IMG/VR virus record: IMGVR_UViG_3300011113_000257
Coordinates: 1-64,000 of that record
Strand: one strand, 5' to 3'
DNA: 64,000 nt
DNA from: a virus
Shown here in pieces: positions 38,720-61,383 of this stretch. The notes under the pieces are model-generated. The model made no database searches, was not told the origin of the DNA, and was given only the letters and a program-made list of their open reading frames with translations. The number at the start of each line of letters is the position of its first letter. Position 1 is the stretch's first letter. The position numbers were made by a program, and so were the translations under genes.

Positions 38720-38872
38720 CTAGTTCTCTCTAATAGAGAGTAACGCAAGGCTAACCGCGTTAAGACCGAAAGCAAGTGTTAGCAAGTCTTTGCCTAACAT
38801 TGCCGAAACTACTGCCAATACCCCCGCGCCGAGCGAGGCTACTGCCACCCAAATAATTTCAGTTCTATTCAC
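38720..38872 (-). CDS. Two-TM miniprotein (50 aa), not in ORF track
   Basis: GTG start; MNRTEIIWVAVASLGAGVLAVVSAMLGKDLLTLAFGLNAVSLALLSIREN*. Confidence 0.55.
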   Translation of the reverse strand: MNRTEIIWVAVASLGAGVLAVVSAMLGKDLLTLAFGLNAVSLALLSIREN

Positions 38873-39059
38873 TAGAAACCTTTTTCGGGCGAGTTCGACC
38901 CTTTAACCGAGTAGACGAGTCACGCAACTCAACGCCTTCAGCCCAAACTGCCTTCCGCGCTGTACGGTAGCAAACATCTAGTTCACTAGCAATAGTTTCA
39001 ATAGACTTACCTTCTAGGTACATTTCGCTTGCTTGCTTACTAATTTTCTTGACAATCAT
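38865..39059 (-). CDS. Small HTH DNA-binding protein
   Basis: YLEGKSIETIASELDVCYRTARKAV..GVELR. Confidence 0.75.
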   Translation of the reverse strand: MIVKKISKQASEMYLEGKSIETIASELDVCYRTARKAVWAEGVELRDSSTRLKGRTRPKKVSSE

Positions 39060-39107
39060 TATTTACTTTTCCTTTTCTTTTTCTATGTAGGGGCTTGCCC
39101 TACCCCC

Positions 39108-39266
39108 TTAGGGGTAGAGCAAGTCTTTACAACTTTGAGATAACTCAACGGTATCCACCTTGCATCTATCTGGCGTAGCCAAGTTCTCTGCTACTACAAA
39201 CATCGCAATCAGTATTACCGCAATGAATACGTTCCGAACACGTTCTCCGCGCTTAGTAAGTTTCAT
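39108..39266 (-). CDS. Small single-TM protein
   Basis: MKLTKRGERVR followed by a TM segment; AAGGAG SD; promoter TTGACA-N17-TAAGAT at 39305-39333. Confidence 0.65.
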   Translation of the reverse strand: MKLTKRGERVRNVFIAVILIAMFVVAENLATPDRCKVDTVELSQSCKDLLYP

Positions 39267-39307
39267 CTTGCTCTCCTTTTCGTTGAACCATTCAACTAAG
39301 GACAATC

Positions 39308-40252
39308 TTACGCACTAACCTGCACTTTGTCAAGTCCAGACACGCGAGTCTTTTCATAGACGTTAGCCACTACTTCAGCCCAGATAGACGGCGTATGCGT
39401 ATGAGGTTGATAACCACCCGCACCGCCTATCAACACGCGCCCTTGAGCGTAAGTGTTAGCAATGTCCGCAACTATGTCTGAGGCGTATGCATAGCCGTCA
39501 TAGTCAAATTGCAAACTAGCAAGCGGGTCAGTCTTGTGACCATCCGCGCCAGTAGCCAGTAGCACAACATCAGGTTGATACTTATCCGCAAGTTCACGGA
39601 TGTCATCCATAGCCTGAGCAAACTCCAAGTTCCCAGCACCACGAGGCAACGCCCAGTTGTAAACTGAATTTTTTTCGTCGTGACCACTACGCCCAGTTCC
39701 AGGGAATACAGTCCCGTCGTGAATACTCATAGTTGGAATGTCCGTATGGTAAAGCAATGCCTCAACTCCGTCACCGTGATGAGCATCCCAGTCAATGTAC
39801 ATAGTCTTTAGACCTGCTTCACCGAACTTCTTTCCAGCCCAAGCAATGTCATTAAACACGCAAAAACCACTTGAGTAGTCATAGTGAGCGTGATGCTTTG
39901 CACCTTGAGGATTAAAGCCAACTTGCACTTCTCCAGCAATCATCTTCTCAACTAGCCGAGCCGTACCTGCAAACATCTTGAGCGCAGTAAGACCAAGTTC
40001 TGGTTTTGTTCCTGCCCACTCATTCGATAAGCCAAGTAGCACTTCTTGAATGTAGGCAGGGTGATGCACTTTATGTAGTTCTTTAATGTCCGCATCCGTG
40101 CTTTTAGGCGCAACAATCTTTACGCTATTTTTGCCTAACTTGTCAATAAGCAAGTCGGTAGCAAGCAATGCGCGTTCTGGATTAGTAGGGTGACCTTCAC
40201 CTAACTGCCAATCCAAATAATCATTTCCGTATGCAATGTGTAATTTTGTCAT
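39308..40252 (-). CDS. Zn-dependent histone-deacetylase-family (AcuC-like) deacylase
   Basis: HPTNPER, GAKHHAH, SGFCVFND, YIDWDAHHGDGVE, GADGHKTDPL, GGAGGY. Confidence 0.92.
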   Translation of the reverse strand: MTKLHIAYGNDYLDWQLGEGHPTNPERALLATDLLIDKLGKNSVKIVAPKSTDADIKELHKVHHPAYIQEVLLGLSNEWAGTKPELGLTALKMFAGTARLVEKMIAGEVQVGFNPQGAKHHAHYDYSSGFCVFNDIAWAGKKFGEAGLKTMYIDWDAHHGDGVEALLYHTDIPTMSIHDGTVFPGTGRSGHDEKNSVYNWALPRGAGNLEFAQAMDDIRELADKYQPDVVLLATGADGHKTDPLASLQFDYDGYAYASDIVADIANTYAQGRVLIGGAGGYQPHTHTPSIWAEVVANVYEKTRVSGLDKVQVSA

Positions 40253-40759
40253 TTAGTCATTTCCTTTCTTCTCTAAATCTAGTAACCACTTTTCGTAGTC
40301 TTTGTTGCAAAGTACAAGAACACTTCTTGACTGTCGCAAGTATGTGATACTTTCCTCAGCCGAGTAGCCTCTACTCATTAGCACTAATGCGCTAACAAGT
40401 CCAGACCTATTCAGCCCAGACAAGCAACGAATCAGAACACTCTTTCCCGCGTCAAGTTCGTAGTTCACAAAGTCCACTAAAAATTTCAGTTCTTCTTCGT
40501 TAAACTCCGCAACACTTCCATCTTCAAAGTGTTGCCGAAACTCTCTAACGTGCCAGTCCACGGGATTACTCCAAGCGTGTAGTGTCACCACCGTATCAAA
40601 GTCCTGCTTTGTAATCCGTGGTTCTATCTCTGGCTTTCCAACAATGTCATCTTCATCAGTTCCGCCCATAAATAAATTGGGATAAACTTCTGTCCATAAC
40701 TCTTTTGGCATCAGTTCCGCATAAGTTCCGAGTCCTTCTTCCTTTTCGTATTTTGTCAT
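40253..40759 (-). CDS. Dual-specificity / PTP-like protein phosphatase
   Basis: CX5R active site VLIRCLSGLNRSG; EVYPNLFMGG N-terminus. Confidence 0.88.
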   Translation of the reverse strand: MTKYEKEEGLGTYAELMPKELWTEVYPNLFMGGTDEDDIVGKPEIEPRITKQDFDTVVTLHAWSNPVDWHVREFRQHFEDGSVAEFNEEELKFLVDFVNYELDAGKSVLIRCLSGLNRSGLVSALVLMSRGYSAEESITYLRQSRSVLVLCNKDYEKWLLDLEKKGND

Positions 40760-40829
40760 TTTTTCCTTTCCCTTGAAGAATAACAGGTTAATAACATTTT
40801 GTCAAATTGACGGGAAAAGATAAAACCCT

Positions 40830-40883
40830 GTTATCAAATCGTTATCAAATGGATTAGGAAATGTCAGGGTAATGCGCTATGCT
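40830..40883 (+). promoter_or_regulatory. Promoter with upstream GTTATCAAATC direct repeat
   Basis: GTTATCAAATCGTTATCAAAT, then TAGGAA-ATGTCAGGGTAATGCGC-TATGCT; the same 21-mer occurs inverted at 57976-57996. Confidence 0.65.
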
Positions 40884-40924
40884 TAGTACATAAGCCAACA
40901 AGGGGTTGGTGAAAAGGGGTAACA

Positions 40925-41167
40925 ATGAATTGCACTCAATGTGAGAGAAAGGCTTACTCCGTAGGTCTTTGTACTGCGCACTATATGGCTAACTATCGGG
41001 CAAAGAAAAAATACGGCATACCTACCAAAGTCTCTAAGCGACACGGTGGCTGTGTAGAGGCTGGTTGTGAGCGAGAGATTTACTCAAACTCCATTTGCAG
41101 GACACACTATATGAGGGTCTATCGCCGTAGGGTAAAGATACGAAATAAAGAAGGTCTAAAGATTTAG
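40925..41167 (+). CDS. Small protein with two Cys/His (C..C...C..HY) Zn-binding repeats
   Basis: CTQCERKAYSVGLCTAHY and CVEAGCEREIYSNSICRTHY. Confidence 0.75.
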   Translation: MNCTQCERKAYSVGLCTAHYMANYRAKKKYGIPTKVSKRHGGCVEAGCEREIYSNSICRTHYMRVYRRRVKIRNKEGLKI

Positions 41168-41347
41168 AATCCTATACACGGGCTCACAAGGGTCGCCACC
41201 TTCGTCAGCGTATTCCTGTTCTTCAGGGGTTAAGTAATCCCAACCACTATCGTGTACCGCGCAATACTGCTCGCTAATCCACCCTTTTGTTCTGCCAAAC
41301 AGTATCCACTCCGCGCGTTCATCCCATTCTTCGTCTTGCATCTGCAC
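41156..41347 (-). CDS. Hypothetical protein
   Basis: GWIS..YCAVHD...GGDPC motif. Confidence 0.6.
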   Translation of the reverse strand: MQMQDEEWDERAEWILFGRTKGWISEQYCAVHDSGWDYLTPEEQEYADEGGDPCEPVYRILNL

Positions 41348-41358
41348 CCCTAAAAATT

Positions 41359-41919
41359 TCAGTTATCTTTGTACTGTACCGCAATGTGGATAGTTCCGCC
41401 AGTACCTGAATCCAAGTAAGACGAAATAGTTATGGCTTCTTTTAGATAAGTCTTTGCTTCCTCGACCGTAACTTTAGTCCTGACCATAGAATGCAATGCG
41501 CCAAGCGCGAATGATGAGCCACTACCAATACCGTAGATACCTGCAACATCTCTTGCCCAGCAGTAGTCATCATCAATCTCGTAGACAACACCATTAACGC
41601 AAAGGATAATGTTAAACTCTTGGTTTCCGTCTTTTGCGTAACCATTTGTTTCAAAGTAGCCCCTGATTACTGGAATTACTTTAGTAGAAACAAACCTGTC
41701 AAGTTTAACTCCACTTAAGTTTTCCGCATCAGGTAAAGGAATGTCCGCAAGTAAGTTCACAGCCCTCAAGTCTCCTGCAGCACCTATGAGATAGTTCCCG
41801 TTCTTAGATACTTTCTTTATCCCACTTGGTAAAAGATAAACTCTGTTGTCTGATGAAATTTGAGAGTCAAACCCAACAACCGTAAATCCGTCTCCCTGAA
41901 TTGCTGCAATAGTTGTCAT
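41359..41919 (-). CDS. Proteasome beta/HslV-like Ntn-hydrolase protease
   Basis: N-terminal MTTIAAI (Thr nucleophile), GFDSQ, K, GAAGD, GIGSGSSFALGAL, DSGTGG. Confidence 0.85.
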   Translation of the reverse strand: MTTIAAIQGDGFTVVGFDSQISSDNRVYLLPSGIKKVSKNGNYLIGAAGDLRAVNLLADIPLPDAENLSGVKLDRFVSTKVIPVIRGYFETNGYAKDGNQEFNIILCVNGVVYEIDDDYCWARDVAGIYGIGSGSSFALGALHSMVRTKVTVEEAKTYLKEAITISSYLDSGTGGTIHIAVQYKDN

Positions 41920-41936
41920 TAGAAAAGATTTCAGTT

Positions 41937-42203
41937 CTAGACTTCGTAGTCAATCGCGTCATCCCAGAGCAGGTCTTTAAGTTCATTTTCATACTTTGCT
42001 GAGTTCCAACCATTAGTTTTTTCCGAGATGTCTTCCTCATCAACAATCGAATCTAAAGACAAAACTGCCGTGTAGCCGTCATCCTCAAACATAATAATTA
42101 ACTTAGTGTCATCTCTTTCCGCGTCATCAACGATAGCAACAACAAAGGACTCGCCCGTACGATTAGTGTGGTACGCGCTCTGGAGAATTTCTAGTCTGCT
42201 CAT
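41937..42203 (-). CDS. Hypothetical acidic protein
   Basis: ORF track; co-oriented. Confidence 0.6.
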   Translation of the reverse strand: MSRLEILQSAYHTNRTGESFVVAIVDDAERDDTKLIIMFEDDGYTAVLSLDSIVDEEDISEKTNGWNSAKYENELKDLLWDDAIDYEV

Positions 42204-42252
42204 AGCAAAAACATTACCGCATCCTTAGAAAGGCTATTTTTGCTTAAAAAAC

Positions 42253-42483
42253 CTACTTAAAAACAGTAGTGAGCCTGTCGCTTAGGTTTACTATCTTGAC
42301 TATCTTGCTAGTGTTGTCTGGATTAAGTTCCCTAATCAACGCACTAGCCTTTGGATTATTGACCGCACTAAGTTGCTTATGGGCGTAGGCAATAGCCAGC
42401 CCCAAAGAGGTTTGAGTTCTACTCTCGAACGGAGGCTTTATTTCTTTGCCCTTCGAGGTCATTAGTGATACTGAATACTTCAT
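42253..42483 (-). CDS. Hypothetical protein, likely leaderless
   Basis: TTGACA-N16-TAGACT ends 6 nt before the ATG; no SD. Confidence 0.6.
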   Translation of the reverse strand: MKYSVSLMTSKGKEIKPPFESRTQTSLGLAIAYAHKQLSAVNNPKASALIRELNPDNTSKIVKIVNLSDRLTTVFK

Positions 42484-42518
42484 ACCTTTAGTCTACCTAA
42501 AAGATTTCATTTGTCAAG

Positions 42519-42713
42519 TTAATCAAAATACTCAATAACTACCGCGCCCACGAAAGAAACCGCGCCAACTATAAGGGTTGCTACCAAGTAAGTAGGCGTT
42601 ATCACTACTGGCTTTAGCAGACCGATAAACATAAGTTGTAGTTCTAGTAGTGCTAAAGGCAATGAGCCAATAGCAACAAAAGTTAAAACATCCCGTAAGT
42701 GGAATAGAAACAT
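42519..42713 (-). CDS. Small membrane protein
   Basis: Two hydrophobic segments; GGAGG SD. Confidence 0.6.
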   Translation of the reverse strand: MFLFHLRDVLTFVAIGSLPLALLELQLMFIGLLKPVVITPTYLVATLIVGAVSFVGAVVIEYFD

Positions 42714-42716
42714 CTC

Positions 42717-42857
42717 TTAGACCTCCCACTCTCTGTAGCAATCTTGGCAAACCCAATCGAGGGTTATCCAATCGGTGCTTGACGGTGAAACATTAAAACC
42801 ACCGCGAACTGAATCTCCGCACTGTGGACACTGATGTGATTCCTTAAACTTTAACAT
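42717..42857 (-). CDS. Zn-ribbon miniprotein
   Basis: MLKFKESHQCPQCG...CQDC; AAGGAG SD after AAGGG hairpin. Confidence 0.65.
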   Translation of the reverse strand: MLKFKESHQCPQCGDSVRGGFNVSPSSTDWITLDWVCQDCYREWEV

Positions 42858-43204
42858 CTTGCTCTCCTTTTTATCGCCCCTTGCGATAGTTCTATCATAA
42901 CACAAGTCTCTGACCTTTGTCAAGTTAAACGCTAGACGCGCCACCGAAAGGGGATAAGGTGACGCGCCTAACATTTATGAGTGGGGAGAAAGGGGGGGCA
43001 ACCCCACTCGTATTCGGAGCATAGGGAGAAGGGAGAAAACCCTCGCTCTACGAACTCCTCTACTTTAGCATAAAAAAATTTCAGTTATGCCTCCGTGTCG
43101 GAAAATTTAACAATCCCCACAAACTGACTTACTCGAAACCTTTTTCGAGTCAAGCCCAAACCTTTTACCGCATCTCCAACAATTAGTAAAGATAGTCACT
43201 ACCC

Positions 43205-43429
43205 TCACTCCCCAATCTCTGGAATGTCGTAGTCGTTCTGCCAACCGCACTTAGGGCAAGTCCAAACACCGCGCCCCCAGTCGTCAAAAGATACTTCCTC
43301 TGTACCCTCAAACTTGCAGTCAATCTCCGCGCCTGACTGAAACTCAATAATGCCTTTGCACTCTAGGTCATCAATCTCTGCTGAATCCGCGTAGAATCCT
43401 GAACCTCTTAGTGAACCTTCGTAACTCAT
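43205..43429 (-). CDS. Small Zn-binding protein
   Basis: C...C...CPKC; AAGGGA SD. Confidence 0.7.
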   Translation of the reverse strand: MSYEGSLRGSGFYADSAEIDDLECKGIIEFQSGAEIDCKFEGTEEVSFDDWGRGVWTCPKCGWQNDYDIPEIGE

Positions 43430-43497
43430 TTTGTTTCCCTTCTTCTATCGCCCCTTGCGATAAATCTATTTAACCACATAATCTGACTAATGTCAAG

Positions 43498-43671
43498 TTA
43501 CTTGATAACTGTGCCTGTCCAACCCTCTGGAATTGAGTATTTAGTTTTTAGTGCCGTGTGAAAAGTGTCCACAACTATCTGACAAACACCGTCTAGTATC
43601 TCGTCACTCATTCCGTCAAGGTATGTCCGCAAGTTTTCCTGCAACTGTTCTTGCAATTCAAAAGTATTCAT
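43498..43671 (-). CDS. Hypothetical protein (57 aa), not in ORF track
   Basis: MNTFELQEQLQENLRTYLDG...; AAGGAG SD. Confidence 0.6.
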   Translation of the reverse strand: MNTFELQEQLQENLRTYLDGMSDEILDGVCQIVVDTFHTALKTKYSIPEGWTGTVIK

Positions 43672-43740
43672 CTTGTTCTCCTTTCAAGAGTAAAGTTCCC
43701 CAACCCTAAATTTCCAAAACATCTAGGGGTGGGGAATCCT

Positions 43741-43935
43741 TTATTTGTCGTTGATACCTAACAAAGCGAAAATTTCATCTTCGTTCAAGACAGTAACCTT
43801 GTCGCCACTATCATCAACAATTTTTACGCTAGTTACACGGTAAGAGTTAGCAACCAAGTCACGAACTTCTTGCGCCGTGTTAGCGGTAAAACTGTACTCG
43901 TTATCTTTCGACTTCATTGTTACGTTGTAAGCCAT
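43741..43935 (-). CDS. Hypothetical protein (64 aa)
   Basis: Start MAYNVT after AAGGGAG; the track's longer start runs through the ncRNA candidate. Confidence 0.65.
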   Translation of the reverse strand: MAYNVTMKSKDNEYSFTANTAQEVRDLVANSYRVTSVKIVDDSGDKVTVLNEDEIFALLGINDK

Positions 43936-43993
43936 TTCGTTCTCCCTTCTTGGCTCTACCCTTCCCGCACTTTGCGGAAAAGTTTTCAGTTTA

Positions 43994-44135
43994 TGAAGTA
44001 GGTAGGTGGCTCTCTCAACCACCTGTATGCGCTTCCCCACGCTTCCTATTCGGCTACCTACTTCAGTATTGACTGGCGAACTACGCACCGCACTCCAGTT
44101 GTAGTTTTCTTACCTAGTGCAAGACCAGTCAAGTC
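43994..44135 (-). ncRNA. Candidate structured ncRNA (pseudoknot domain plus tRNA-like cloverleaf)
   Basis: Stems 44132-44125/44076-44069 and 44065-44055/44004-43994; own promoter at 44159-44187. Confidence 0.5.
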
Positions 44136-44188
44136 TTTCTCTATTTAGTTATGACCCTAGTCTATCATACTAGGTTTGCTTTCGCAAG

Positions 44189-44267
44189 TCCCAAGAGTAG
44201 GAATCGAACCTACCGTGCCAAAGCGAGTGATTTACAGTCACCTTCCCCACCTTGAGGAATCCTTGGG
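44189..44267 (-). tRNA. trnY: tRNA-Tyr(GTA), atypical D arm, no encoded CCA
   Basis: Acceptor CCCAAGG/TCTTGGG; anticodon arm GGTGA-CTGTAAA-TCACT; long variable region; T arm GTAGG-TTCGATT-CCTAC; promoter at 44287-44315. Confidence 0.75.
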
Positions 44268-44301
44268 GTTATTTAGTTATGGAACTAGTTTATCATACTA
44301 G

Positions 44302-44469
44302 TTATCTTTTTGCAAGTTCTTCGATTAATCTTGTTCGGCGTACAACATCTTTCGTACTCCAACCTTGACCAATCTCCGCGCAAGACTCCAAGTAGTAATC
44401 TAAGTCCTGAATTTCATCGTGAAGTTCGTTCACGGTGAGTTCCTCTACTGGTTTGTTTCTTGTAAGCAT
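44302..44469 (-). CDS. Hypothetical protein (55 aa), not in ORF track
   Basis: MLTRNKPVEELTVNELHDEIQ...; SD; promoter at 44491-44519. Confidence 0.6.
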   Translation of the reverse strand: MLTRNKPVEELTVNELHDEIQDLDYYLESCAEIGQGWSTKDVVRRTRLIEELAKR

Positions 44470-44624
44470 CTTTGCCCCTTTCGTTCCTCAAGTGTACAAC
44501 ACTTTCCTGACAAATGCAAGTCACGGGAAAAGATAATTTAGCGAAGGCGGGACTCAGAATAAAAAATTTCAGTTTTACCAAAAAAGAAAACCCCCGCAAT
44601 GCGCGAGGGCTTTCCATTTTTAGA

Positions 44625-44798
44625 TTAGTAGTTTTCGTTCACCCAATCCACAACGTCTTGCATTTTATCCGCGCTACGCGCTACCGCTAGAAAGTTTTCA
44701 TCTTCTAGTAATAGGCTTTCGTGAACAGTGGTCTCACCTGCTACGAAACCCAGTACGACTCTTAGATTAAGAGTTGATAGTAGTTGTCCTGTTGCCAT
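44625..44798 (-). CDS. Hypothetical protein
   Basis: Start MATGQLL after AAGGGG. Confidence 0.65.
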   Translation of the reverse strand: MATGQLLSTLNLRVVLGFVAGETTVHESLLLEDENFLAVARSADKMQDVVDWVNENY

Positions 44799-44880
44799 TT
44801 TTTCACCCCTTTCCGTGTGATAACACGAGTCTATCATACCTACCTGACATTTGCAACCCTAACGCCCGAGCGTGGTGGGG

Positions 44881-45030
44881 CTAGTTGCCCCCACCACCGC
44901 ATTCGCCATCGGCGAATTCGAGACAACCGCCACAGCAGTCGTCACAAGTACGCACCCAGATAACATCTAGGGCAGGAATGTGTAGAGTTGAGTGAGTTGA
45001 GGTTGTGTTGCAGAATTGGCATTTGGACAT
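44881..45030 (-). CDS. Cys-rich miniprotein
   Basis: MSKCQFC...CDDCCGGC...C. Confidence 0.55.
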   Translation of the reverse strand: MSKCQFCNTTSTHSTLHIPALDVIWVRTCDDCCGGCLEFADGECGGGGN

Positions 45031-45157
45031 TTGAAACCCCTTTAGGTTTAGTATCAAGACCCCTTGCCTTGATGAATCAAGTCTATCATACCTACCTGAC
45101 ATTTGCAAGCACATAAGAAAACCCCCTCCGTAGAGGGGGCTTTCCAAAGGGGTCGCG

Positions 45158-45467: not shown

Positions 45468-45582
45468 TTTTCTCCCTTTCGTGGTATTTCCACTACCTAA
45501 AGTAAACCACTTTATCTGACAAAAGTCAAATCAAATTAAATCCCGCGTGTCCCTAAAAAATTTCAGTTTTACGTTCCCGCAC

Positions 45583-45619
45583 AAAAAAAATAACCCACCC
45601 CGTAGGGTGGGCTACTTTT
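45583..45619 (-). terminator. Intrinsic terminator (representative; similar ones at ~44581, 45117, 46206, 46941, 47400, 49105, 49541)
   Basis: GC hairpin with an A-run on + (U-tract on -). Confidence 0.75.
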
Positions 45620-45624
45620 GTAGA

Positions 45625-46098: not shown

Positions 46099-46246
46099 AG
46101 AACAACCTTATCAAACAACCTGATAAAAGTCAAGCCAACAACTCATAACTATTTTTTCCGGGCAGCGGCGGCGGCAGAACTGAAATTTTTTATTTCTCCC
46201 GCGCAAGAAAAAAATCCCCACCTTTCGGCGGGGTTCTTTCTTTGGT

Positions 46247-46366
46247 TTAGGCTCTGGTTAGAAAGCGTTTTCCCTCGTGGCGGTGGAACAATGCGATTCC
46301 GTAGCGGTGGGCTACTTCTTTTCCGCATAAGTAGCAATTTGCTTTCCCGTAAAGTTTTCCAAACAT
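46247..46366 (-). CDS. Miniprotein with CxxC (39 aa), not in ORF track
   Basis: Promoter at 46411-46439, hairpin, AGGGAG SD; MFGKLYGKANCYLCGKE... Confidence 0.55.
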   Translation of the reverse strand: MFGKLYGKANCYLCGKEVAHRYGIALFHRHEGKRFLTRA

Positions 46367-46821: not shown

Positions 46822-47144
46822 TTGCTTCCCTTTCTCTGTGGTACTTCCACTAAAAAATAATAACACATCTCCCTGACATTTGCAAATTATCTTTTCCGCG
46901 TGTCCCCTGACCTAAAAAATTTCAGTTATCTAACTCAGCGCAAAAAGAACCCCGCACTTTCGCACGGGGAACTTTTTGTTTGGTTAAAGTATTTCTCCTA
47001 CTGTTGCTTCCTCGCAAGGGTCGCAAATCCAACCCTCTACTCCGTGCTGGTCAAAAGGAATCATAGTGTCCTTGCATTCAACGCATACAACGTATTTTGT
47101 CCCGTCTGTAGACGTAGCAACTAAACTATCTAATGCGTTCATCT

Positions 47145-48992: not shown

Positions 48993-49143
48993 CTCTGACT
49001 CCTTTCGATAAATCTATTGTAGCACACTTCCCTGACATTATCAAATCGAACCGCGCTCGGCGTGTCGCAATTTAATAATCTCCGTAAAAAATTTCAGTTA
49101 TGAAAATAAGAAAACCCCCACTTTTGGTGGGGGCTTCCTTGCC

Positions 49144-50101: not shown

Positions 50102-50269
50102 TTGGGTTTCCCTTCTGTAAGCAAGTCCCTCTTGCTCACTCTGTGAGTTTATCATACTAGCCTGACATTCGCAACTCAAACGAAAAACTTTTTTCGTGTC
50201 GCCATAACTGAAATTTTTTAAGTAGGCAACAAAAAATCCGCGCAATCTTCCGCGCGGACTTTCTTTTGT

Positions 50270-51129: not shown

Positions 51130-51297
51130 TTTGTTTTCCCTTCCGTAAGCAAGTCCGTCTTGCTCACTCTGTAAGTTTATCATACTAGCCTGACATTTGC
51201 AACCTGAACGCGAAACTATTTTTTCCGCGCCCGCGCCAGAAAAAATTTCAGTTTTCAATTTGAGATAAACGCGGATTTCTCCGCGCTCTCTCGTTTG

Positions 51298-51690: not shown

Positions 51691-51695
51691 GCCAC

Positions 51696-52777: not shown

Positions 52778-52958
52778 TTGGTTTCCCTTCCTTAGCAAGC
52801 CCTTCTTGCTAATAACTCTATGATACATCAATACCCTGACATTTGCAACTTGAACACGAAATTATCTTTTCCCGTGCCTTCGCTGAGTTCCGCATAAAAA
52901 ATTTCAGTTTTGTGAAACCAAGAAACCCCTAGCCTTTCGGCTAAGGGCATCTTTTGGA

Positions 52959-53656: not shown

Positions 53657-53889
53657 TTTGATTTCCCTTTCTATCAGTAAGCCTTTCTTGCTGATAAAAC
53701 TATCATACCACACTATCCTGACATTACCTAATCGGGGCTTTAGCGCGTGTCGCAGAAAAAATTTCAGTTATCTAAAATTACGAAACCCGTACCAAAAAAA
53801 TTTCAGTACGGGCTTCGCTTAGAAACTGTCGGAAGGCTGACACACGCTGGAAGGACGATACCCCCCGACAGGGCTTATGGGTTATTCAA

Positions 53890-55698
53890 TTATCCGTTAC
53901 GGTTTCCCATAGCGGTTAGTGCTTTCGCACACGCTTGTCCGATAGCGTTGGACGCTTCCGTTGGAGAAGCCACACCGCTTAACGGCTCTACCGTTGTCCC
54001 CCTTAGGAGACTTCTGGCACTTGAACCGTTGTCGAACGGTATCCATACTACCGCCACGCCGTTGCTCTCACACTGCGACACCCAACTCCGAGCCTTTTGG
54101 GTCTCGTCGTAAGTGTACACGCCGTCGGATACCACGACTAAAAGCCTAGCACCGTCACCGTTGAGCAGGTTCAACTCGCCGTCTATTGCCTTGAACGCCT
54201 TGTCAAACTTTTCCGTACCGTCTGGTGCTGTGTACACCGTTACGTCCGTTAAGTGCTGACCAGACTTGAGCGTAGGGAACACGTCGTCGCCGTAGTACAC
54301 CATCGCGCACTTGCCTTGGACTCGCCGAGTTGCTTCCGACATTACCCACGCCGTTGTCGCCATCGGTTGCATCGCCGAATTCATCGAACCGCTAATGTCT
54401 ACCATCACGCCGACCTTTAGTGTTGGCTCGTCCGTTGTCTTACGGACTCGCTTACGCCAAGGTTGCGCCGTTGGTTGCATACCTATCGCCTTGTGTGCTT
54501 CGTTCTGCATAGCCGAGCGAGTTCGTAGCCGTCCACCGGGAACAATGCTACGCACTTCAACAACATCGCGCTCGCGATACTTTGCACGCTCTAATGCGCT
54601 CGCCACTTTCACCGCGCTGATACGCTCGTCTGCCGTAGGCTTACGAACCTCTGTTGCATAACTACGAGTACGAGTAGATGCTGATGGACCAGTACCTCGC
54701 CCGAAAACTTCTTGAGCAACTTTAACATTCTCACGACTTTGCTTTGCACTGTCCGCGCGATTCTTAACTTCCTCTTTCCATTCCTCTGACTCCTCTTGGT
54801 CTGCAAGTTCGGAGTAGTTAGACACCGCAACATTTTCAGATGCTTCTTTCAACTTCTCAAGTAACTCTTTTAATGCTTCGCCAACTTCAGATGTAGACTC
54901 ACCACTTCCACCAGAAGTACTTTCACTACCAGAATTATCCTCGCCACGTTCGTTTGCAAGGTCGCGAACAATCTGTGCCCACTCACGCGCTAATGGATAA
55001 ACAGGTTCCATGTTTCGATGGTCTGTGTGTGTAATGAAACGCTCGATAACACTGCATAACTTTTCAACAGTTTCGTTGCCTAAGTATTCCTCTATAAATT
55101 CTGTAACCTCTAGAACATCATCACGCTCTAAAATTCCACCAATGATTCGACCATGCACTAGTCCAACTAAAGTTGCAATGTTTGAAACACTACCCTGTGT
55201 CAAATCCTCTGACTCAAAATCTGCAATAACAATTTCCATTGCACTTGAGCATAGAAATGCGCGATACCGAGCATCAAGCAAAATACCTTGTGCTTCGATT
55301 CGTGATTCCTCAAGAAGCATTAGTGCTTCGTACTCGTCTGACTTTAATGCTTCGTAAGCAGACTCTAAACTCCACTTCGAGAAACGAGCGTGAAATGCTT
55401 CGTGCATTATCGCGCCAGTTGCCTTTGGAAATTCGTACTGCGTTGAGCGTTGATTAATGTCGCTAATGTGTTCTGGCTTAATGCCAAACCCGAAAGCAAT
55501 TTCTGTGTTCACTTCAATTTCTGCAATCGCTGGCTTGTAGCACGCTGGCGCATTGCTACCTGCAACAGGAGATGCAAGTCCAACTAAATCACCGCGACCT
55601 GCGATTGAGTTTGCTAGTTGCGCAATCTGCGAACCAACTGCATACCATTCTGGATGTCTTTCACCAGAAGTCTTACTGTGTGTGTCAATGTGTGCCAT
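53890..55698 (-). CDS. HEXXH metallopeptidase-like plus VWA domain protein (CobT/MoxR-partner type)
   Basis: HEAFH...LEESRIE; MIDAS motif DISGS; VVSDG. Confidence 0.85.
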   Translation of the reverse strand: MAHIDTHSKTSGERHPEWYAVGSQIAQLANSIAGRGDLVGLASPVAGSNAPACYKPAIAEIEVNTEIAFGFGIKPEHISDINQRSTQYEFPKATGAIMHEAFHARFSKWSLESAYEALKSDEYEALMLLEESRIEAQGILLDARYRAFLCSSAMEIVIADFESEDLTQGSVSNIATLVGLVHGRIIGGILERDDVLEVTEFIEEYLGNETVEKLCSVIERFITHTDHRNMEPVYPLAREWAQIVRDLANERGEDNSGSESTSGGSGESTSEVGEALKELLEKLKEASENVAVSNYSELADQEESEEWKEEVKNRADSAKQSRENVKVAQEVFGRGTGPSASTRTRSYATEVRKPTADERISAVKVASALERAKYRERDVVEVRSIVPGGRLRTRSAMQNEAHKAIGMQPTAQPWRKRVRKTTDEPTLKVGVMVDISGSMNSAMQPMATTAWVMSEATRRVQGKCAMVYYGDDVFPTLKSGQHLTDVTVYTAPDGTEKFDKAFKAIDGELNLLNGDGARLLVVVSDGVYTYDETQKARSWVSQCESNGVAVVWIPFDNGSSARSLLRGTTVEPLSGVASPTEASNAIGQACAKALTAMGNRNG

Positions 55699-55835
55699 CT
55701 CTGGCTCCTTCCTTTTGTACGCCCCTTTGACGTACTCTGTGAGTTTATCATACCTTCTTGATATTTCCAAATTGAAGGGTGGGGAGTCGGGAAACACTCA
55801 CGAAAACCGACTCCCCTTAGCAAGGATGAAAGGGA

Positions 55836-56867
55836 CTAAATCCTTGCTGGCTTGTATTCCGCACCAAACACGCGAGACAGAACATCTGCCACGATTGGTC
55901 TGTCCATCTCTGGTGCAGAAGCAAGTAAGTTCGAGATACCAAACGGAACCCCGAATGTTGTAACGATGTCGCGGAACGCTAAAAGTTCGCGCATCTGTGG
56001 AGCCCACGAGACTTCACCAGACTCTTGTTTCTTAGCAAGATTCTGCGCAACAGTAACGAGGTTGCTAGGTACACCTAAGGTGCGAGCAAGTGACCAGTCA
56101 GTTGCCATCTCTGCTTGAACAGTAAAGCGAGATAGTAAGGCTTCTGAAAGTCGTACTCCCGGAGCATTAGGGTTAGTTGCACCCACAACATAAAAGTCAG
56201 GGTGAACCTTAACAGTACCTCTGTCAGGATTAGCAGTGACAGTAATTTCGCCACGTCCATCCATCACGCCATACAAACCTGAAAGTTGCTTAGGGTCAAT
56301 CAGACCAATCTCGTCAATGAACAAGACTGCACCTTCCTCTACTGCTCGCACAAGTGGACCATCTACCCACTCGAAACCACCAGCAGGATTCTGTACGAAC
56401 CCACCAAGGAAGTCTGACATTTCGATGTCAGCAGTTCCAAGTACTGTGTACATATTTCCACCAAACGCTGCTTCGACTAATGCAGTCTTACCAGTTCCCG
56501 GTGCGCCATAAAGCAACGCGAACATTGGCGAGCCAACTTTGTCTGTGACAGACAAGGTAGTTGCTTCACGAGCCTTGCGTAATGTTGCAACATCTTGATG
56601 TTCACCCCAAGTACGAGCGTGGTACACACTTCCATTTGGACGAATGTATTGACTACTACTTGATTCAAGTGTGACACCTGATGTTGTAATTGGTGTCGCT
56701 ACGCGAGCAACGCGAGGTGCGCGTTCTACGAAACGACCTTGTGGTAAAACCTGCGAGATTACTCTCATAGATGCTTCTGTTGATACTGACTGCGCAACCA
56801 TGTCGTCTAACATGGAAGTGAATTCAGTTCCCCACTTTGAATAAATTTCATTTTCTTTGATGCTCAT
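55836..56867 (-). CDS. MoxR/CbbQ-type AAA+ ATPase
   Basis: GAPGTGKT, WVDGPLVRA, LFIDE, ATNP, LSEALLSRF. Confidence 0.92.
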   Translation of the reverse strand: MSIKENEIYSKWGTEFTSMLDDMVAQSVSTEASMRVISQVLPQGRFVERAPRVARVATPITTSGVTLESSSSQYIRPNGSVYHARTWGEHQDVATLRKAREATTLSVTDKVGSPMFALLYGAPGTGKTALVEAAFGGNMYTVLGTADIEMSDFLGGFVQNPAGGFEWVDGPLVRAVEEGAVLFIDEIGLIDPKQLSGLYGVMDGRGEITVTANPDRGTVKVHPDFYVVGATNPNAPGVRLSEALLSRFTVQAEMATDWSLARTLGVPSNLVTVAQNLAKKQESGEVSWAPQMRELLAFRDIVTTFGVPFGISNLLASAPEMDRPIVADVLSRVFGAEYKPARI

Positions 56868-56883
56868 AATTTTCAGTCCCTTT

Positions 56884-57351
56884 CTACGCTGTGAACATTT
56901 CTGGATAAGATAATGCAGTTCGAGTCTGGTTGATTCGATGCACGACCTTAGTTGGAGTCTTACCTTCTGTTACATCTGTCAAGTCTTTCTGTGAAACTTC
57001 CACAAAAAATGGCTTGCCAATAAGTACGCTACTAATTGAAACGCGCTTCATAAACCACGCTAGTGTTTGAAGTCGCTCCTCGCGATGGTTCTCTGATGTA
57101 ACCCCTGTTGCTGGGTCTACGAGACTACGCTGAAGTGCTTGCACCTTCCATTGTTTCTTTGGCTGTGATGCCGAAAGACGACGATAGTAGACACGCGCTG
57201 TCGAAAAATTTCCAAGTTCATTCCAACCATCTGGAGTAATGAACATCTGAAAAATCTGTTGGTATTCATTCTTGAATTCCGCGTACAAGGCTGTGCCCTG
57301 TACTTTCTTTTCTGGGTCTGTAAGCAGACCAAGAGGTGTTTCTGTTGACAT
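56884..57351 (-). CDS. Hypothetical protein (first gene of the AAA operon)
   Basis: Promoter at 57398-57426; AAGGA SD. Confidence 0.7.
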   Translation of the reverse strand: MSTETPLGLLTDPEKKVQGTALYAEFKNEYQQIFQMFITPDGWNELGNFSTARVYYRRLSASQPKKQWKVQALQRSLVDPATGVTSENHREERLQTLAWFMKRVSISSVLIGKPFFVEVSQKDLTDVTEGKTPTKVVHRINQTRTALSYPEMFTA

Positions 57352-57475
57352 AGTGAGTATTTCCTTTCTTTATGTCTTTTGTCCCTGTGACATTTCTAGT
57401 TTAGCATAACGCTATGATGGAGTCAAATCGGGGTAGGAGTATGTCTAAGGAGACCTACCCCGACCTGACTTCTAA

Positions 57476-57808
57476 CTACTTAGCGACAATGATGTCGTAA
57501 GTAGAAACCTTTGAACAGGTTTCGTATGCTTCTGGATAAACTTCTTTCAGAAGCGTTGAGTCCACATTGGTGCGTGAACGTGGTGCAAGTTCCACTACTG
57601 GAAGCCCTGCGACAGTACCAACCTTGGCAGAACCAATTAGGTCACGAATTGCGCTGTCAAGTTCTGACTTTGCTTTTTCGAGTTCCTTGATTGCAAGTTT
57701 TGCGTTAGCAAAATCTGCAAGCAGGTTCGCGATGTTGGTGTTGTCCAATTCAACGGTGGACGTTTCCGTGACAACCTGTGTTGTCGTTACCTGTGTGCGT
57801 ATGCTCAC
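57476..57808 (-). CDS. Coiled-coil protein resembling YqaJ-type C-terminal region
   Basis: GTG after AAGGGG; VDSTLLKEVYPEAYE motif. Confidence 0.55.
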   Translation of the reverse strand: MSIRTQVTTTQVVTETSTVELDNTNIANLLADFANAKLAIKELEKAKSELDSAIRDLIGSAKVGTVAGLPVVELAPRSRTNVDSTLLKEVYPEAYETCSKVSTYDIIVAK

Positions 57809-58122
57809 TTTGGCGATTCCCCTTTCAAGGAAAGTTCGATAGACCATCTAACGAACAGTTCTAACTTTACGCCCTACACCTGACATTTGTCAAATCGAGC
57901 GTTTCCACCCCGATTTCTCGGGCTGTTTTCGTTCATAGAACCAATGTAACACATTACCCTGACATCCGCAAGTTTATTTGATAACGATTTGATAACGGAC
58001 CGGGAACTGAAATTTTTTAGTTCCGGGTTGTTGAAGGCGGGCTCCAATAAAAAATTTCACTTTTGGGCAAAAAGAAACCCCCGTTCGAAACTCACTGGTT
58101 TCGATTTAACGGGGGTTGGTCT

Positions 58123-58311
58123 TTAGAGTTCTTGCTCCCACTTTTCGATGTCAAACATTTCCCAGATTTCATCATCTGTGAAATTTTCCTTCAACCAAAT
58201 AGCGGTGCGCTTTTGGACTACTGGGTTTTCGTCTACTGGCTTAGCAGTTCCGAAGATGCTACCCATAAGGGCTTGGTATGCGTGTGCGTTTGCTTCATGC
58301 GGTTTGTTCAT
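58123..58311 (-). CDS. Hypothetical protein
   Basis: ATGA coupling. Confidence 0.6.
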   Translation of the reverse strand: MNKPHEANAHAYQALMGSIFGTAKPVDENPVVQKRTAIWLKENFTDDEIWEMFDIEKWEQEL

Positions 58312-58772
58312 ACTCCTACGGTAACACGAGGCACTGACATTTCTTCAGGTGTCCAAATGTAGGGGAGGTCACTTGGCGTATCGGGAAAAAATTCAGAGTA
58401 GTACTCAGGGGCTTTGCGCAAGAGATTCGAGCGGTGCGATTCGTGGAACCGTGAGTTCCCGATGAACCAAGGCAAGCCTTCGTACCGCTTACCTTGCACC
58501 GTTAGGTCTCGCATCTTCTCGATGAAGTACGGTAGCAGGTTGTCGACATACCCTCTCCGTTTCCACTCCAGCGACATTATTGAACCGTAGTACGCGAGTG
58601 CGAACTCGTGCCCACGCCACATCTTGGTCGCAGGGTGGTTGACCCAACCCGTTGTCTCGCCGTTGAGCGCCATCAGTATTTGCTTGGTCTCAACCCGTTG
58701 CTTCCCGAGCCGTCGGTAGTCCAATACCCTCGCCGTCTTTTCAAAATCGGCGTATGGCAGGAACGTCTGCAT
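58308..58772 (-). CDS. MSMEG_6728-family pyrimidine-dimer DNA glycosylase / endonuclease V-like protein
   Basis: MQTFLPY, LD.RRLGKQRVE, HPATKMW, HESHRSNLLRK, DLPYIW. Confidence 0.85.
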   Translation of the reverse strand: MQTFLPYADFEKTARVLDYRRLGKQRVETKQILMALNGETTGWVNHPATKMWRGHEFALAYYGSIMSLEWKRRGYVDNLLPYFIEKMRDLTVQGKRYEGLPWFIGNSRFHESHRSNLLRKAPEYYSEFFPDTPSDLPYIWTPEEMSVPRVTVGV

Positions 58773-58957
58773 TAGCCCTCGCCGTTCTCTCGAACTAGCG
58801 CGATGGCTCTCGCCATGCCTGCAGACCAACCGTCGTTAAACGCGACATCCGTCTCGTCCATTTCCTCAGCGTCCGTCATGTCTTCTTCGGTTACCCGTTC
58901 CCACTCCTCCATTAAAATTTCTAATAGTGTCATGTGGTCACGCCCGCTAACGCCCAC
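58772..58957 (-). CDS. Hypothetical acidic protein
   Basis: TAATG coupling to the next gene. Confidence 0.55.
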   Translation of the reverse strand: MGVSGRDHMTLLEILMEEWERVTEEDMTDAEEMDETDVAFNDGWSAGMARAIALVRENGEG

Positions 58958-59169
58958 GCCTTCTTGAGGTCGCGGTCGAAGTCGCGTTGCAACTTATCCC
59001 ACGCCGTTTCGTCAAAAAGGATTGGGTGCGCCTCTTGCTTATTTCTGCTAAGCACTCGCCGTATAAAAGATTTCAGTTCCGTGTAGTTCATGTTCTTGCT
59101 CCTCCTTTGTTTTGCGGGGCACGCCGTGTGCCTCGCCGTCGTGATGTATTAACTTTATGATAAAAGTTT

Positions 59170-59454
59170 CTAGATGTCAAGCGCGTACTCTGGGAGTTCC
59201 ATCCCTGCCCCAACTAACGCGCGCCGTATTAAACCTTGCTGACGCGAAGTTGTCTGCGAGTATTTATCTACGTTCAGATAAGTAACCTGACGTTTTTCTG
59301 TGTTTATACTAGCCATCCGTGTTGAGTAAGAGTAGATGTCGTAGATGATGTCGCCACCAGCGTCGCACCATTTCGAGGCTCTCATGCTGTGACCGTGCTT
59401 GAATGGTTTGAATGCTGGAATAAATTCTTCTGCAATTTCTTTGTAACTAGGCAT
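59170..59454 (-). CDS. Conserved phage hypothetical protein
   Basis: IYSYST...KYSQTTSRQQ; full cassette. Confidence 0.7.
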   Translation of the reverse strand: MPSYKEIAEEFIPAFKPFKHGHSMRASKWCDAGGDIIYDIYSYSTRMASINTEKRQVTYLNVDKYSQTTSRQQGLIRRALVGAGMELPEYALDI

Positions 59455-59539
59455 TTTTATTTCCCTTCCCGTTGATGTGTCTCACCAACAAGAACCATTC
59501 TATCATACCAACCTGACATTCGCAACTTAAGGCACGCCA

Positions 59540-59893
59540 TTAGATTTCTTCAGTGTCTTCCATTAGTTCAGGAAGATTTTCCTCAACCATCTCCCAGAAG
59601 GTATCAAAAATTTCGATATTCTCTCGAACCTCTTCAACGGGTGCATCGTATTCAATGGTAACGATTTCGTGGACGTGCTCTTCGTCTTCCTCAACGTGGT
59701 GAGTTCGAAACACATAGTCACCGTCTTCGGTGATTAGGTAATTAATAAACATCACGGAGCACTCAGATGTGAGCGCGACTTGGTATGTCTCGGTTAGGGG
59801 GTCGTAGATAGGACAGCAAGCAGAAATGATGTCGTGCATGTAGTGCCCTTTTTTGATGACACGGCTTGGGTGAATGTTGTTCGGTTTGTTCAT
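59540..59893 (-). CDS. Hypothetical acidic protein (possibly leaderless)
   Basis: Promoter at 59900-59928 ends 6 nt before the ATG. Confidence 0.55.
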   Translation of the reverse strand: MNKPNNIHPSRVIKKGHYMHDIISACCPIYDPLTETYQVALTSECSVMFINYLITEDGDYVFRTHHVEEDEEHVHEIVTIEYDAPVEEVRENIEIFDTFWEMVEENLPELMEDTEEI

Positions 59894-60127
59894 ACTAGCA
59901 GTATTGCACATCCGTCTGACATTTCCAAATCGGGCTCAGGGCACACCGTTTAAAAAATTTCAGTTTTGAGTTTGCACGGATGGATTTTGCGGTCCTAGCC
60001 CGGAAAATATAAAAAGGAGGCGGGTGGCCTGGGCGGCTCTTCCAGGCTAAGCGGTTTAACCGTTTAAAAGATTGCGTCAACAATCAGGGCGGCTAGAATA
60101 AGCGCCCCGAGAAATGCAAAAGGAAAT

Positions 60128-60295
60128 TTAAACTCGCTCATCGGTCATCTCGGCGGTCAGCATCTTAACCAGTTCCGTTGCGCGGTTGGCTCTTGCGGTT
60201 ACGCGGATGTGCTCTTCGCGGGTCTTCGCAAGCGGGATGTCTGCGGTTAGGTCACGGGCTAATTCTTCGGCGACTGCTAATAAGTTATTTGTCAT
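60128..60295 (-). CDS. Hypothetical protein
   Basis: MTNNLLAVAEELARDL... Confidence 0.5.
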   Translation of the reverse strand: MTNNLLAVAEELARDLTADIPLAKTREEHIRVTARANRATELVKMLTAEMTDERV

Positions 60296-61268
60296 CAGGG
60301 CTCGCCGCCTGGTCTTCTGAGGCTGCATCCGTTATTATATTTTCCGGGCGGTCATCAGGATTGGATACAATCACGGCATCCGTTATCTCGTAGGTGGCTA
60401 CATCCGTTGGTGTTTCTTCCGGGGACAGGACGCTATAAACGCTCGCCGCTCCTGCAGCAAGCCGTTGCAATCTTTCAGCAACAATGACATGTGGCGGTCG
60501 CGCATCGTTGACTTCGACATCAACGCTAAGTTCCATTCCTCCGCGCACGCCCGCACGGTCGAGAATCTCCGTCGCCGCTTTTAACTTAACGGGTTCAGAC
60601 TCAGCGTTCTCCATCATATCTTCTAGAACGTCGACTGCATACGGTGCGGCTTGGATGAGTTTGCGTCTCGCCCGTTCTACATCTTCGCCCGGTTTGCGGA
60701 CGGACTTTAAGTGGGCTCGGCACAAGCCGTCATCTTTGAGGCGACCAGATGCCCACAACATACAGCGCAAGCCGTCATCCTTGATAGTTCGGCATCGCGT
60801 CGGGAGAACTGCGGGTTGCTTTCTTTCGCTCGCCGTTGGTTCGTTTTGTTCCGCTACCCACTTACGGGTCGCGCCGATAACCCAAGGCGGAGAAATCTTC
60901 ATGGCGTTGTCATCAAGCAGGAGGTCAACACCCGTTAGGTAATCTGAATTATTATTTGAACCGTCAACTAAAAGCGGTCGCTTCTCAACGAGTGAGAGGA
61001 CACGCCGTTCGCGCATTGCCTCTGGAGACCGTGCGGCTATCATACCCGTTGGGTTACCCGTTGCGTCGTAAACGGAATCCCAGTTGTAATGGGCTCGCCG
61101 TAATAGGGAGCGGTTGTCGTAGGTGTCGTCGCACACGCCCCGTTCGTGCTCTATGATACCGAGTTCGGAAAGGTCGGGGCGTAGGTCTAGCGGTGTATCA
61201 AGGCGTGGCGCTCTATCCGTTGGGTCATCTTTGGGACCCTCGGAATCAAACTTTATAACTTCTGTCAT
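60285..61268 (-). CDS. Putative terminase small-subunit-like protein (Cys/His finger plus VKLKAATEILDRAG helix)
   Basis: RC...G.RC...LC..H followed by VKLKAATEILDRAG; the function is inferred. Confidence 0.4.
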   Translation of the reverse strand: MTEVIKFDSEGPKDDPTDRAPRLDTPLDLRPDLSELGIIEHERGVCDDTYDNRSLLRRAHYNWDSVYDATGNPTGMIAARSPEAMRERRVLSLVEKRPLLVDGSNNNSDYLTGVDLLLDDNAMKISPPWVIGATRKWVAEQNEPTASERKQPAVLPTRCRTIKDDGLRCMLWASGRLKDDGLCRAHLKSVRKPGEDVERARRKLIQAAPYAVDVLEDMMENAESEPVKLKAATEILDRAGVRGGMELSVDVEVNDARPPHVIVAERLQRLAAGAASVYSVLSPEETPTDVATYEITDAVIVSNPDDRPENIITDAASEDQAASPDDK

Positions 61269-61383
61269 GCCTCGCCGTTCAATAAAAAATTTCAGTTATC
61301 GTCTCACAATGTGGAACGATTGCTCGCCGTTAAAAAATTTCAGTTTTGCGGGCGGGGAAGCCGCCGCTGCCTGGAAGTTGTAA

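Follow-up and report, generated by a model that had tools for sequence, protein, structure and literature searches.

A 13-bp asymmetric word recurs in the early region of a large tailed phage known from IMG/VR virus record IMGVR_UViG_3300011113_000257 and, judged from comparison with related genomes, is under strong selection. We analysed the first 64 kb of this 110,857-bp record (positions 1-64000, the window), in which the word reads AAAAATTTCAGTT on the plus strand. Its sequence is invariant while its flanks diverge, other phage clades place different words in the same slot, and inverted copies have been retained; on these grounds a site in the DNA that is read by a protein is the best-supported class of explanation. 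Within that class our first choice, held with somewhat less than even confidence, is that the word is a distal upstream docking site of early promoters.

Distribution and conservation of the word

The window holds 16 exact copies, 13 on the plus and 3 on the minus strand, all within 40479-61345. The initial annotation had counted these correctly. However, the genes of this region lie on the minus strand, so that the word reads AACTGAAATTTTT in gene sense and the 13 plus-strand copies are in fact co-oriented with transcription. Dinucleotide-preserving shuffles gave a mean of 0.01 exact copies and a maximum of 1, in line with the earlier estimate of far below one, and the word is the most over-represented 12-mer of the whole genome. 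Beyond the window the rest of the record contains no exact copy and one copy with a single mismatch. When up to two mismatches were allowed, 30 matches were found against 4.9 expected, and the excess falls wholly inside 38.8-61.4 kb; the four two-mismatch matches in the first 38 kb are at chance level. The genome-wide map thus agrees with the proposed restriction to the early region, the word being far from equally dense across the 110,857 bp. Altogether there are 16 exact, 6 one-mismatch and a few two-mismatch copies, or about 20. The variants listed earlier (38852, 41924, 42500, 43979, 48110, 53796, 58050 and 59066) are copies with one or two mismatches, to which we add 39662; the one at 38852 is probably not a functional site.

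Alignment of the 37 exact copies of this phage (G000) and a close relative (G001) extends the conserved span to 17 bp, A-W-AACTGAAATTTTT-T-A, with a mild preference for G 3-4 nt past it. An element that would place stop codons in all three frames was ruled out, as the flanking bases are too variable. The two genomes are ~88% identical in nucleotide sequence and mosaic in cassette content. G001 carries 21 exact copies, only in its early region (28.6-53.4 kb), of which 18 are co-oriented with the genes, compared with 13 of 16 in G000 (81-86%). Across 15 orthologous pairs in the same orientation, 195/195 core bases are identical, whereas the flanks of 40 nt on either side are 78% identical (P about 5e-22). 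In contig L191, a distant third member of this A clade, 10 kb hold 11 exact copies, although its neighbouring proteins are just 33-70% identical. Among the matches listed in a 15-mer scan of IMG/VR, most were single chance hits and one was a further A-clade contig. A core that stays invariant while its flanks diverge argues for strong selection on the word, which is among the most strongly constrained non-coding elements of these genomes, whatever its effect.

Conservation of this kind bears on the idea that the word is only a recombination signpost, kept as shared microhomology for cassette exchange between co-infecting relatives and with no role in transcription. The early region is indeed mosaic, G000 and G001 differing in their promoter-gene-terminator cassettes, and its proteins include a match to the RecE-like exonuclease family. 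In one case a copy of the word plus ~40 nt stands at either end of an extra G001 cassette, where G000 has a single copy: positions 53769-53717 of G000 align to both 12012-12066 and 12895-12947 of L012, on either side of the extra cassette. Promoter-early stem-loops (PeSLs) reportedly form the cassette boundaries of T4-type phages, as Arbiol et al. are said to have described in 2010. The early genes here are likewise small, are flanked by a stem-loop and a conserved host-type early promoter (TTGCAAATGTCAGG-type), and are gained or lost at repeated boundary modules, if only in the one case. The two systems differ in phage family and host phylum, and here there is in addition an invariant clade-specific 17-bp word, far more constrained than its surroundings, and a WhiA-type box. 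Against the signpost, a length of 13-17 bp is short for homologous exchange, recombination would have homogenised the flanks together with the word, and evolvability alone does not keep every copy base-perfect; copies in a coding sequence, a terminator loop and a promoter spacer, moreover, do not mark cassette boundaries. We regard this explanation as very improbable. The recombination core proposed in the initial annotation has partial support from one cassette indel that ends in a word-plus-promoter module, but it leaves the base-perfect conservation unexplained, and nothing was found in support of the DNA-entry signal that it also offered.

The phage itself encodes PolA, a PrimPol-D5 primase-helicase, an SNF2 helicase, a class II ribonucleotide reductase, ThyX, a CobS/MoxR-type ATPase with a 635-aa partner, an HslV-like peptidase, two WhiB-family proteins and a resolvase-type recombinase. 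Its relatives point to uncultured lake Actinobacteria as the probable host. Among named phages it is closest to the metagenome-assembled Actinomycetia phage DSL-LC01 (PMC10611076); a search of the phage nucleotide collection gave no match, and 72 related IMG/VR loci were found.

The word in the upstream region of early promoters

Small minus-strand genes fill the interval from 38.7 to 63 kb, each early cassette consisting of a sigma-A-type promoter, a leader, a ribosome-binding site, the gene and an intrinsic terminator. The promoters combine TTGCAA or TTGACA with a spacer that starts ATGTCAGG and a TAnnnT hexamer; AATGTCAGG occurs 16 times, 14 of them on the gene strand between 44.8 and 62.3 kb. 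Besides the -35 and -10 elements, early promoters (for example 46872, 47376, 49031, 50161 and 52338) share the first 8 nt of the spacer, which could be an operator for early shut-off.

Eleven of the 16 exact copies lie upstream of a sigma-A-type promoter, and 10 of these 11 follow an intrinsic terminator, so the slot between terminator and promoter that had been named as the usual place holds for most copies. The ten terminator-to-promoter copies are 9-26 nt past the hairpin and 24-48 nt ahead of the -35 element. From the start of the word to the start of the -35 element the distance is 37-42 bp in 6 of the 11 sites. Three of the 11 promoter-upstream copies are inverted without any change of slot, and two of them (50206 and 46178) are inverted in G000 and G001 alike. 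That inverted copies are kept in place argues for reading at the level of DNA, as had been suggested. The third, at 58005, is forward at the orthologous site of G001, and was thus flipped in situ in G000; this inversion of ~14-18 bp, within 58005-58062, made a perfect hairpin with a 9-bp stem, and the copy now forms a convergent pair with the variant at 58050, 45 bp away. Two further placements noted earlier were also borne out. The copy at 40479 lies within the coding sequence of a phosphatase-like gene, and the one at 42500, in a promoter spacer, has decayed, the same spacer in G001 containing an exact word.

No other clade among the related loci carries the A-clade word, and different words take the same slot there. 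In clade G (L066), GTATTCATTTTTTC occurs 18 times in exactly the A-clade slot, 38-43 bp from the -35 element in 12 of 15 sites. GACAC follows this word by 7-10 nt in six of the nine copies that have GACAC within 48 nt.

In the A clade, too, GACACGC(C/G) boxes are frequent in the interval between word and -35 element. Across 69 non-redundant related loci (L012-L083), non-template-strand GACAC has a sharp maximum at 15-24 nt before the start of the -35 element, with about 64 occurrences compared with ~9 from a flat background, and the promoter-proximal box has the consensus C-GACAC-G-C-C-G-A. Canonical A-clade units leave 4-10 nt from the end of the word to this box, which is itself 13-16 bp upstream of the -35 element. 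Family-wide, a run of at least 5 A or T is found within 22 nt upstream of 28% of promoter-proximal boxes but of only 5-10% of controls, a three- to fivefold enrichment.

GACAC is the WhiA motif of Streptomyces venezuelae, and WhiA is reported throughout Gram-positive bacteria (PMC3781837); in M. tuberculosis, WhiA and WhiB2 share the motif GACACGCC (PMC13473873). The early-promoter box matches the WhiA binding consensus and is a predicted site. As in sigma-A promoters activated by WhiA and WhiB (sepX, PMC10243135; PMC3781837; PMC13473873), a GACAC(GCC) box stands upstream of the -35 element on the non-template strand and WhiB-class proteins are on hand, here two encoded by the phage, whose best solved relative is the WhiA partner S. 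venezuelae WhiB (8DY9/8DY7, E = 7.7e-12 and 4.3e-6). This suggests that host WhiA and a WhiB act jointly at the early promoters. The mention of WhiB in the initial annotation was apt, although the link runs through a separate WhiA-type box that adjoins the word, and no described WhiA/WhiB promoter includes the word itself.

The proposed docking site would be the most distal part of a multi-part upstream promoter region. Its A3T6 tract would be located where the C-terminal domain of the RNA polymerase alpha subunit (alpha-CTD) binds in the solved complex of WhiA and WhiB with RNA polymerase, while recognition of its 5' half, which is invariant and clade-specific, would fall to a sequence-specific protein that is encoded by the phage or particular to the host lineage. 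The T-tract would thus serve alpha-CTD and the AACTG half the clade-specific protein. Binding would tune initiation at the downstream early promoter, most likely by boosting or time-gating it. We infer both the binding of a protein or alpha-CTD and the sign of its effect from sequence patterns. The recurrence of this module at many gene boundaries also makes it a site of gene-cassette recombination. A more specific form, which we consider possible but rather doubtful, is that the early promoters are of WhiA/WhiB type. Host WhiA would be drawn to the GACACGCC boxes by the phage along with the phage's own WhiB paralogs, and the word would be a third docking site read by a co-evolving phage factor, or by alpha-CTD plus such a factor.

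The distal subsite of UP elements has the consensus AAAWWTWTTTT. The AAATTTTTT stretch of the word may resemble it, AAATTTTTTA matching 9 of 11 positions of the consensus in an unscored comparison. UP elements are A/T-rich and bound by alpha-CTD, as Estrem et al. reportedly described in 1998-99. With them the word shares its position upstream of a promoter and its asymmetry, and the run may be a further likeness. However, in its commonest spacing class it lies at about -75 to -62, compared with -59 to -38 for an UP element, and it has an invariant half that is not A/T-rich (AACTG) and differs between phage clades. The alpha-CTD site at sepX is not A/T-rich and has been rated of minor importance (PMC10243135).

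Several observations weigh against a docking site. The invariance of the AACTG half goes beyond what alpha-CTD alone can explain, and neither Pfam/PHROG scans nor a phylogenetic profile (G000 open reading frames (ORFs) against G001-G004, G007 and G008) yielded a convincing cognate binding protein. Spacing in the A clade is not fixed (37-61 bp) and shows no significant helical phasing relative to the -35 element (Rayleigh p = 0.33 at 10.5 bp); a low p-value in L066 mirrors its one dominant spacing and not a periodicity. A GACAC-type box is present within 30 nt in just ~5 of the 11 promoter-upstream copies, and five exact copies (61285, 61333, 41352, 40479 and 43074) have no recognisable sigma-A promoter downstream. 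In the spacer of the G001 promoter, a bound protein would repress and not activate. Early promoters without the word are about as numerous as those with it, usually because the terminator abuts the -35 element. Nor does the word compensate for a weak -35 element, as promoters with and without it did not differ significantly (Fisher p = 0.29 and 0.38), the sole trend being that TTGACA-18 promoters seldom have a word.

A stoperator-like operator or roadblock is a rival reading, in line with the repressor site proposed in the initial annotation. The oriented word would be bound by a monomeric phage protein made after the first minutes of infection, which would block read-through polymerase at cassette boundaries, repress at promoters, and so shut off or insulate early units. 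The Cluster A stoperators bound by L5 gp71 and the TipsytheTRex repressor (PMC9283540) resemble the word in being asymmetric 13-bp sites of an actinobacterial phage that are repeated more than 20 times, intergenic and correlated with the direction of transcription. The site here spans 13-17 bp in ~20 copies, 81-86% of them co-oriented, and the different word of G003 follows gene direction in both arms. Stoperator sequences are lineage-specific, and the clade-specific word recalls the Cluster A immunity groups (PMC9283540, PMC6550527). Short intercistronic gaps hold some copies (41352, 41924 and 61285/61333), the exact copy in the G001 promoter spacer is operator-like, and the divergent control region codes a clade-restricted helix-turn-helix (HTH) protein of the HTH_3 family (64238-64528). 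However, the sites lie within 22 kb of the early region and are not genome-wide, and 10-11 of the 16 copies are outside transcription units, past intrinsic terminators that look efficient and ahead of promoters. Reversal abolishes the function of L5 stoperators (PMC9283540), whereas inverted copies are conserved here, and a roadblock needs no preferred distance from the -35 element such as the L066 word keeps. There was no sign of a lysogeny module. Among all ORFs, Pfam and PHROG scans turned up small HTH proteins (38865-39059 and 64238-64528), the latter, of 96 aa, being the only one of Cro/C1 type, and a 220-aa resolvase-type recombinase but no integrase and no further repressor-like gene; the gp71 family was not itself searched for. 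The analogy with L5 thus stands for size, asymmetry, copy number and orientation but not for placement, and a roadblock seems to us unlikely.

The HTH_3 gene (64238-64528 on the plus strand; L009:238-528) is the first of the rightward arm. It is found only in the A clade apart from a clade G homologue (L066:14412-14708) with a near-identical recognition region; as the two clades have different words, its product is a poor candidate for the reader of the word.

Clade-specific words and start codons

Beyond clades A and G, clade E carries GTAAAAAGTAAAAAC ~30 times within ~30 kb, in both arms along the direction of the genes. The words of clades B', D and F are of the GGTAAAAA type, and many copies are simply the Shine-Dalgarno sequence and spacer before an ATG, so that these A-run words are only partial equivalents; GGGGTAAAAA and GAGGTAAAAAAT (L015, L021, L022 and G004; L092-L098) also occur away from start codons in terminator-to-promoter gaps. 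Group I phages (G007, G008 and DSL-LC01) have -10-only promoters, of the form ACCTGATATAAT in G007/G008 and a GATTCTAAAGATGTTATAAT-type repeat in DSL-LC01, and no such word; G007 and G008 have few terminators at these junctions. Both encode a ~200-aa early-region protein with a match to sigma-70 region 4 (G007, C1:18401-18499, L118; G008, C1:26612-26716, L126). The word of another lake actinophage, GTATCCACTTTTT, is a lead only and is not used as support here.

One junction could be compared in more than 60 relatives. The HslV-like gene (41359-41919, minus strand) starts M-T-T-I, with Thr2 catalytic. Clades A, B', D, E and F each set their own word right after the stop codon of the upstream gene, and no word is present at this junction in clades B and C. 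In clades A, B and C the gene lacks a Shine-Dalgarno sequence; either it is closely coupled to its upstream neighbour or the clade word directly precedes it.

This junction bears most directly on the possibility that the word is a promoter in its own right. It would be of -10-region type, with a clade-specific upstream half read by a phage-modified host RNA polymerase, and would fire ~5-8 nt downstream, in tandem with the sigma-A promoters; some genes would then have leaderless or short-leader mRNAs. Each of the three A-clade genomes has the end of the word 3-4 nt ahead of the HslV-like ATG, a start fixed by Thr2 and lacking a Shine-Dalgarno sequence. The word runs in gene direction, its spacing to the sigma-A promoter is variable within the A clade, and copies stand right before genes that have no other nearby promoter (61285/61333 before gene 60285-61268, and 41352). 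The build also resembles that of phage-specific promoters, with a specific block, an AT-rich run and G enrichment 3-4 nt downstream. On the other hand, the word has no TAnnnT hexamer, and the nearest clades, B and C, couple the HslV-like gene to the upstream gene without a promoter, which means that a leaderless start is not required. A second apparent leaderless case, at 38852, was rejected because homologues place the gene start upstream and the variant thus falls within the coding sequence. Inverted copies would fire straight at bidirectional terminators, and an independent promoter would not need the -35 spacing preferred in L066. Neither a phage RNA polymerase nor an A-clade sigma factor was found: six-frame searches detected no Sigma70_r2 in G000 and no Sigma70_r4 in G001, and a T7-type RNA polymerase had no match in G000-G004, G007 and G008, with an uninformative polymerase control. 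The 3827-aa structural-module protein was considered as a hidden RNA polymerase, but it matched only DnaQ-type exonucleases in Pfam, PHROGs and PDB sequences. Overall, we find an autonomous promoter improbable.

Alternatively, the word might act in RNA, on transcripts that read through or are polycistronic, for example as a target of an endoribonuclease or as an AU-rich enhancer of translation where genes have no Shine-Dalgarno sequence. The majority of copies have sense orientation, some directly precede start codons, and the B', D and F words coincide with Shine-Dalgarno sequence and spacer at many genes. Against this, most A-clade copies lie past terminators and ahead of the promoter, which leaves them poorly transcribed, inverted copies have been conserved, the region matches no Rfam family, and the word has no conserved pairing partner. 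We give this explanation hardly any credence; it and recombination alone explain the least of what is seen. Short asymmetric lineage-specific words are also known from mycobacteriophages of Cluster K (start-associated sequences, SAS) and Cluster M, near gene starts or promoters as here, with functions that are unproven. SAS take in the ribosome-binding site and stand a few bp ahead of start codons, whereas just 2-3 copies of the present word adjoin a start codon.

Feature coordinates and biological meaning

Table 1. Copies of the word and associated features. For the word, strand is that of the gene-sense sequence AACTGAAATTTTT, with (-) co-oriented with the genes and (+) inverted.
Feature	Positions	Strand	Context
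Exact word	61333..61345	-	Upstream member of a tandem pair 48 bp apart, before gene 60285-61268; no sigma-A promoter in between
Exact word	61285..61297	-	16 nt upstream of the ATG of a family-wide 327-aa gene; followed by ACGGCGAG
Exact word	59953..59965	-	24 nt upstream of early-promoter -35 TTGGAA; no terminator detected before it
Exact word	58005..58017	+	Inverted relative to genes; within a 9-bp-stem hairpin
Exact word	53757..53769	-	Canonical: terminator, word, 5 nt, GACACGC box, 14 nt, -35
Exact word	52897..52909	-	Terminator 16 nt before; -35 TTGCAA 48 nt after
Exact word	51241..51253	-	Terminator on one side, promoter TTGCAA-17-TAAACT on the other
Exact word	50206..50218	+	Inverted, terminator-to-promoter slot; CGACACG box 5 nt off on the promoter side; inverted in G001
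Exact word	49087..49099	-	9 nt past terminator; GACACGCC box 20 nt downstream, then -35 TTGATA
Exact word	46915..46927	-	Canonical; GACACGC box 10 nt and -35 TTGCAA 29 nt downstream
Exact word	46178..46190	+	Inverted, terminator-to-promoter slot; inverted in G001
Exact word	45556..45568	-	Canonical; GACACGC box 4 nt and -35 TTGACT 26 nt downstream
Exact word	44562..44574	-	Terminator 11 nt before; -35 TTGCAT 42 nt after
Exact word	43074..43086	-	Abuts extended -10 TGCTAAAGT; CGACACG box 7 nt upstream
Exact word	41352..41364	-	TGA of the word is the stop codon of the HslV-like gene; next ATG 10 nt on
Exact word	40479..40491	-	In coding sequence of phosphatase-like gene, coding E-L-K-F-L; kept in G001
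One-mismatch copy, AACTGAAATCTTT	41924..41936	-	Between stop codon of upstream gene and HslV-like ATG (4 nt off); word at this junction in all three A-clade genomes
One-mismatch copy, TACTGAAATTTTT	53796..53808	-	Loop of terminator hairpin of the 635-aa gene; kept in G001
One-mismatch copy, AAGTGAAATTTTT	58050..58062	-	Directly past terminator; exact in G001
One-mismatch copy, AACTGAAATCTTT	59066..59078	-	Within a small ORF; same variant in G001
One-mismatch copy	38852..38864	-	Inside coding sequence of conserved 50-aa membrane protein; probably not functional
Two-mismatch relic	42500..42512	-	Spacer of TTGACA...TAGACT promoter of a leaderless gene; exact word in G001
GACACGC box (WhiA-consensus-like)	53745..53751	-	Between word and -35
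Further boxes	45545-45551, 46898-46904, 49060-49066, 50195-50201
Sigma-A-type early promoter, example	46857..46885	-	TTGCAA-17-TATTAT, spacer start ATGTCAGG
Intrinsic terminator, example	49108..49140	-	Precedes word
Further such terminators	44585-44615, 52925-52948, 46950-46969, 46216-46233, 45594-45606
WhiB-family (Wbl) genes	90250-90747 and 91453-91752

Other genes of the record were seen along the way. The 3827-aa structural-module protein mentioned above (20885-32368, minus strand) has as its sole recognisable domain a DnaQ/PolC-type 3'-5' exonuclease at residues ~1485-1710 and is just 25-33% identical to its counterparts in other clades. A 1735-aa fusion (14266-19473, minus strand) matches the portal and head-maturation-protease families and has a ferritin/Dps domain at residues 1268-1409. 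A tRNA-Tyr (GTA) gene lies amid the early cassettes (44188-44267, minus strand), flanked by two near-identical promoter-like repeats, AGTATGATAAACTAG and AGTATGATAGACTAG. ORFs of the early region and rightward arm include a Mom-like DNA modification protein, a histone-deacetylase-family protein, a polynucleotide kinase/phosphatase and a pyrimidine-dimer glycosylase.

WhiB genes are common in actinobacteriophages, and their targets on the phage genome are largely unknown. The order of terminator, clade-specific word, WhiA-type box and sigma-A promoter, which each genome repeats dozens of times and the relatives together hundreds of times, offers a testable architecture. Should the word have no effect on transcription, its constraint would need another explanation. 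If it is a docking site, it would show a phage adding a private specificity element to a host activation system, and would explain why cassettes are exchangeable within a clade and not between clades. On the more specific WhiA/WhiB reading, each phage clade would mark a host activation machine common to all with its own 'address label', and the modules so labelled would serve a second purpose as points of gene-cassette exchange.

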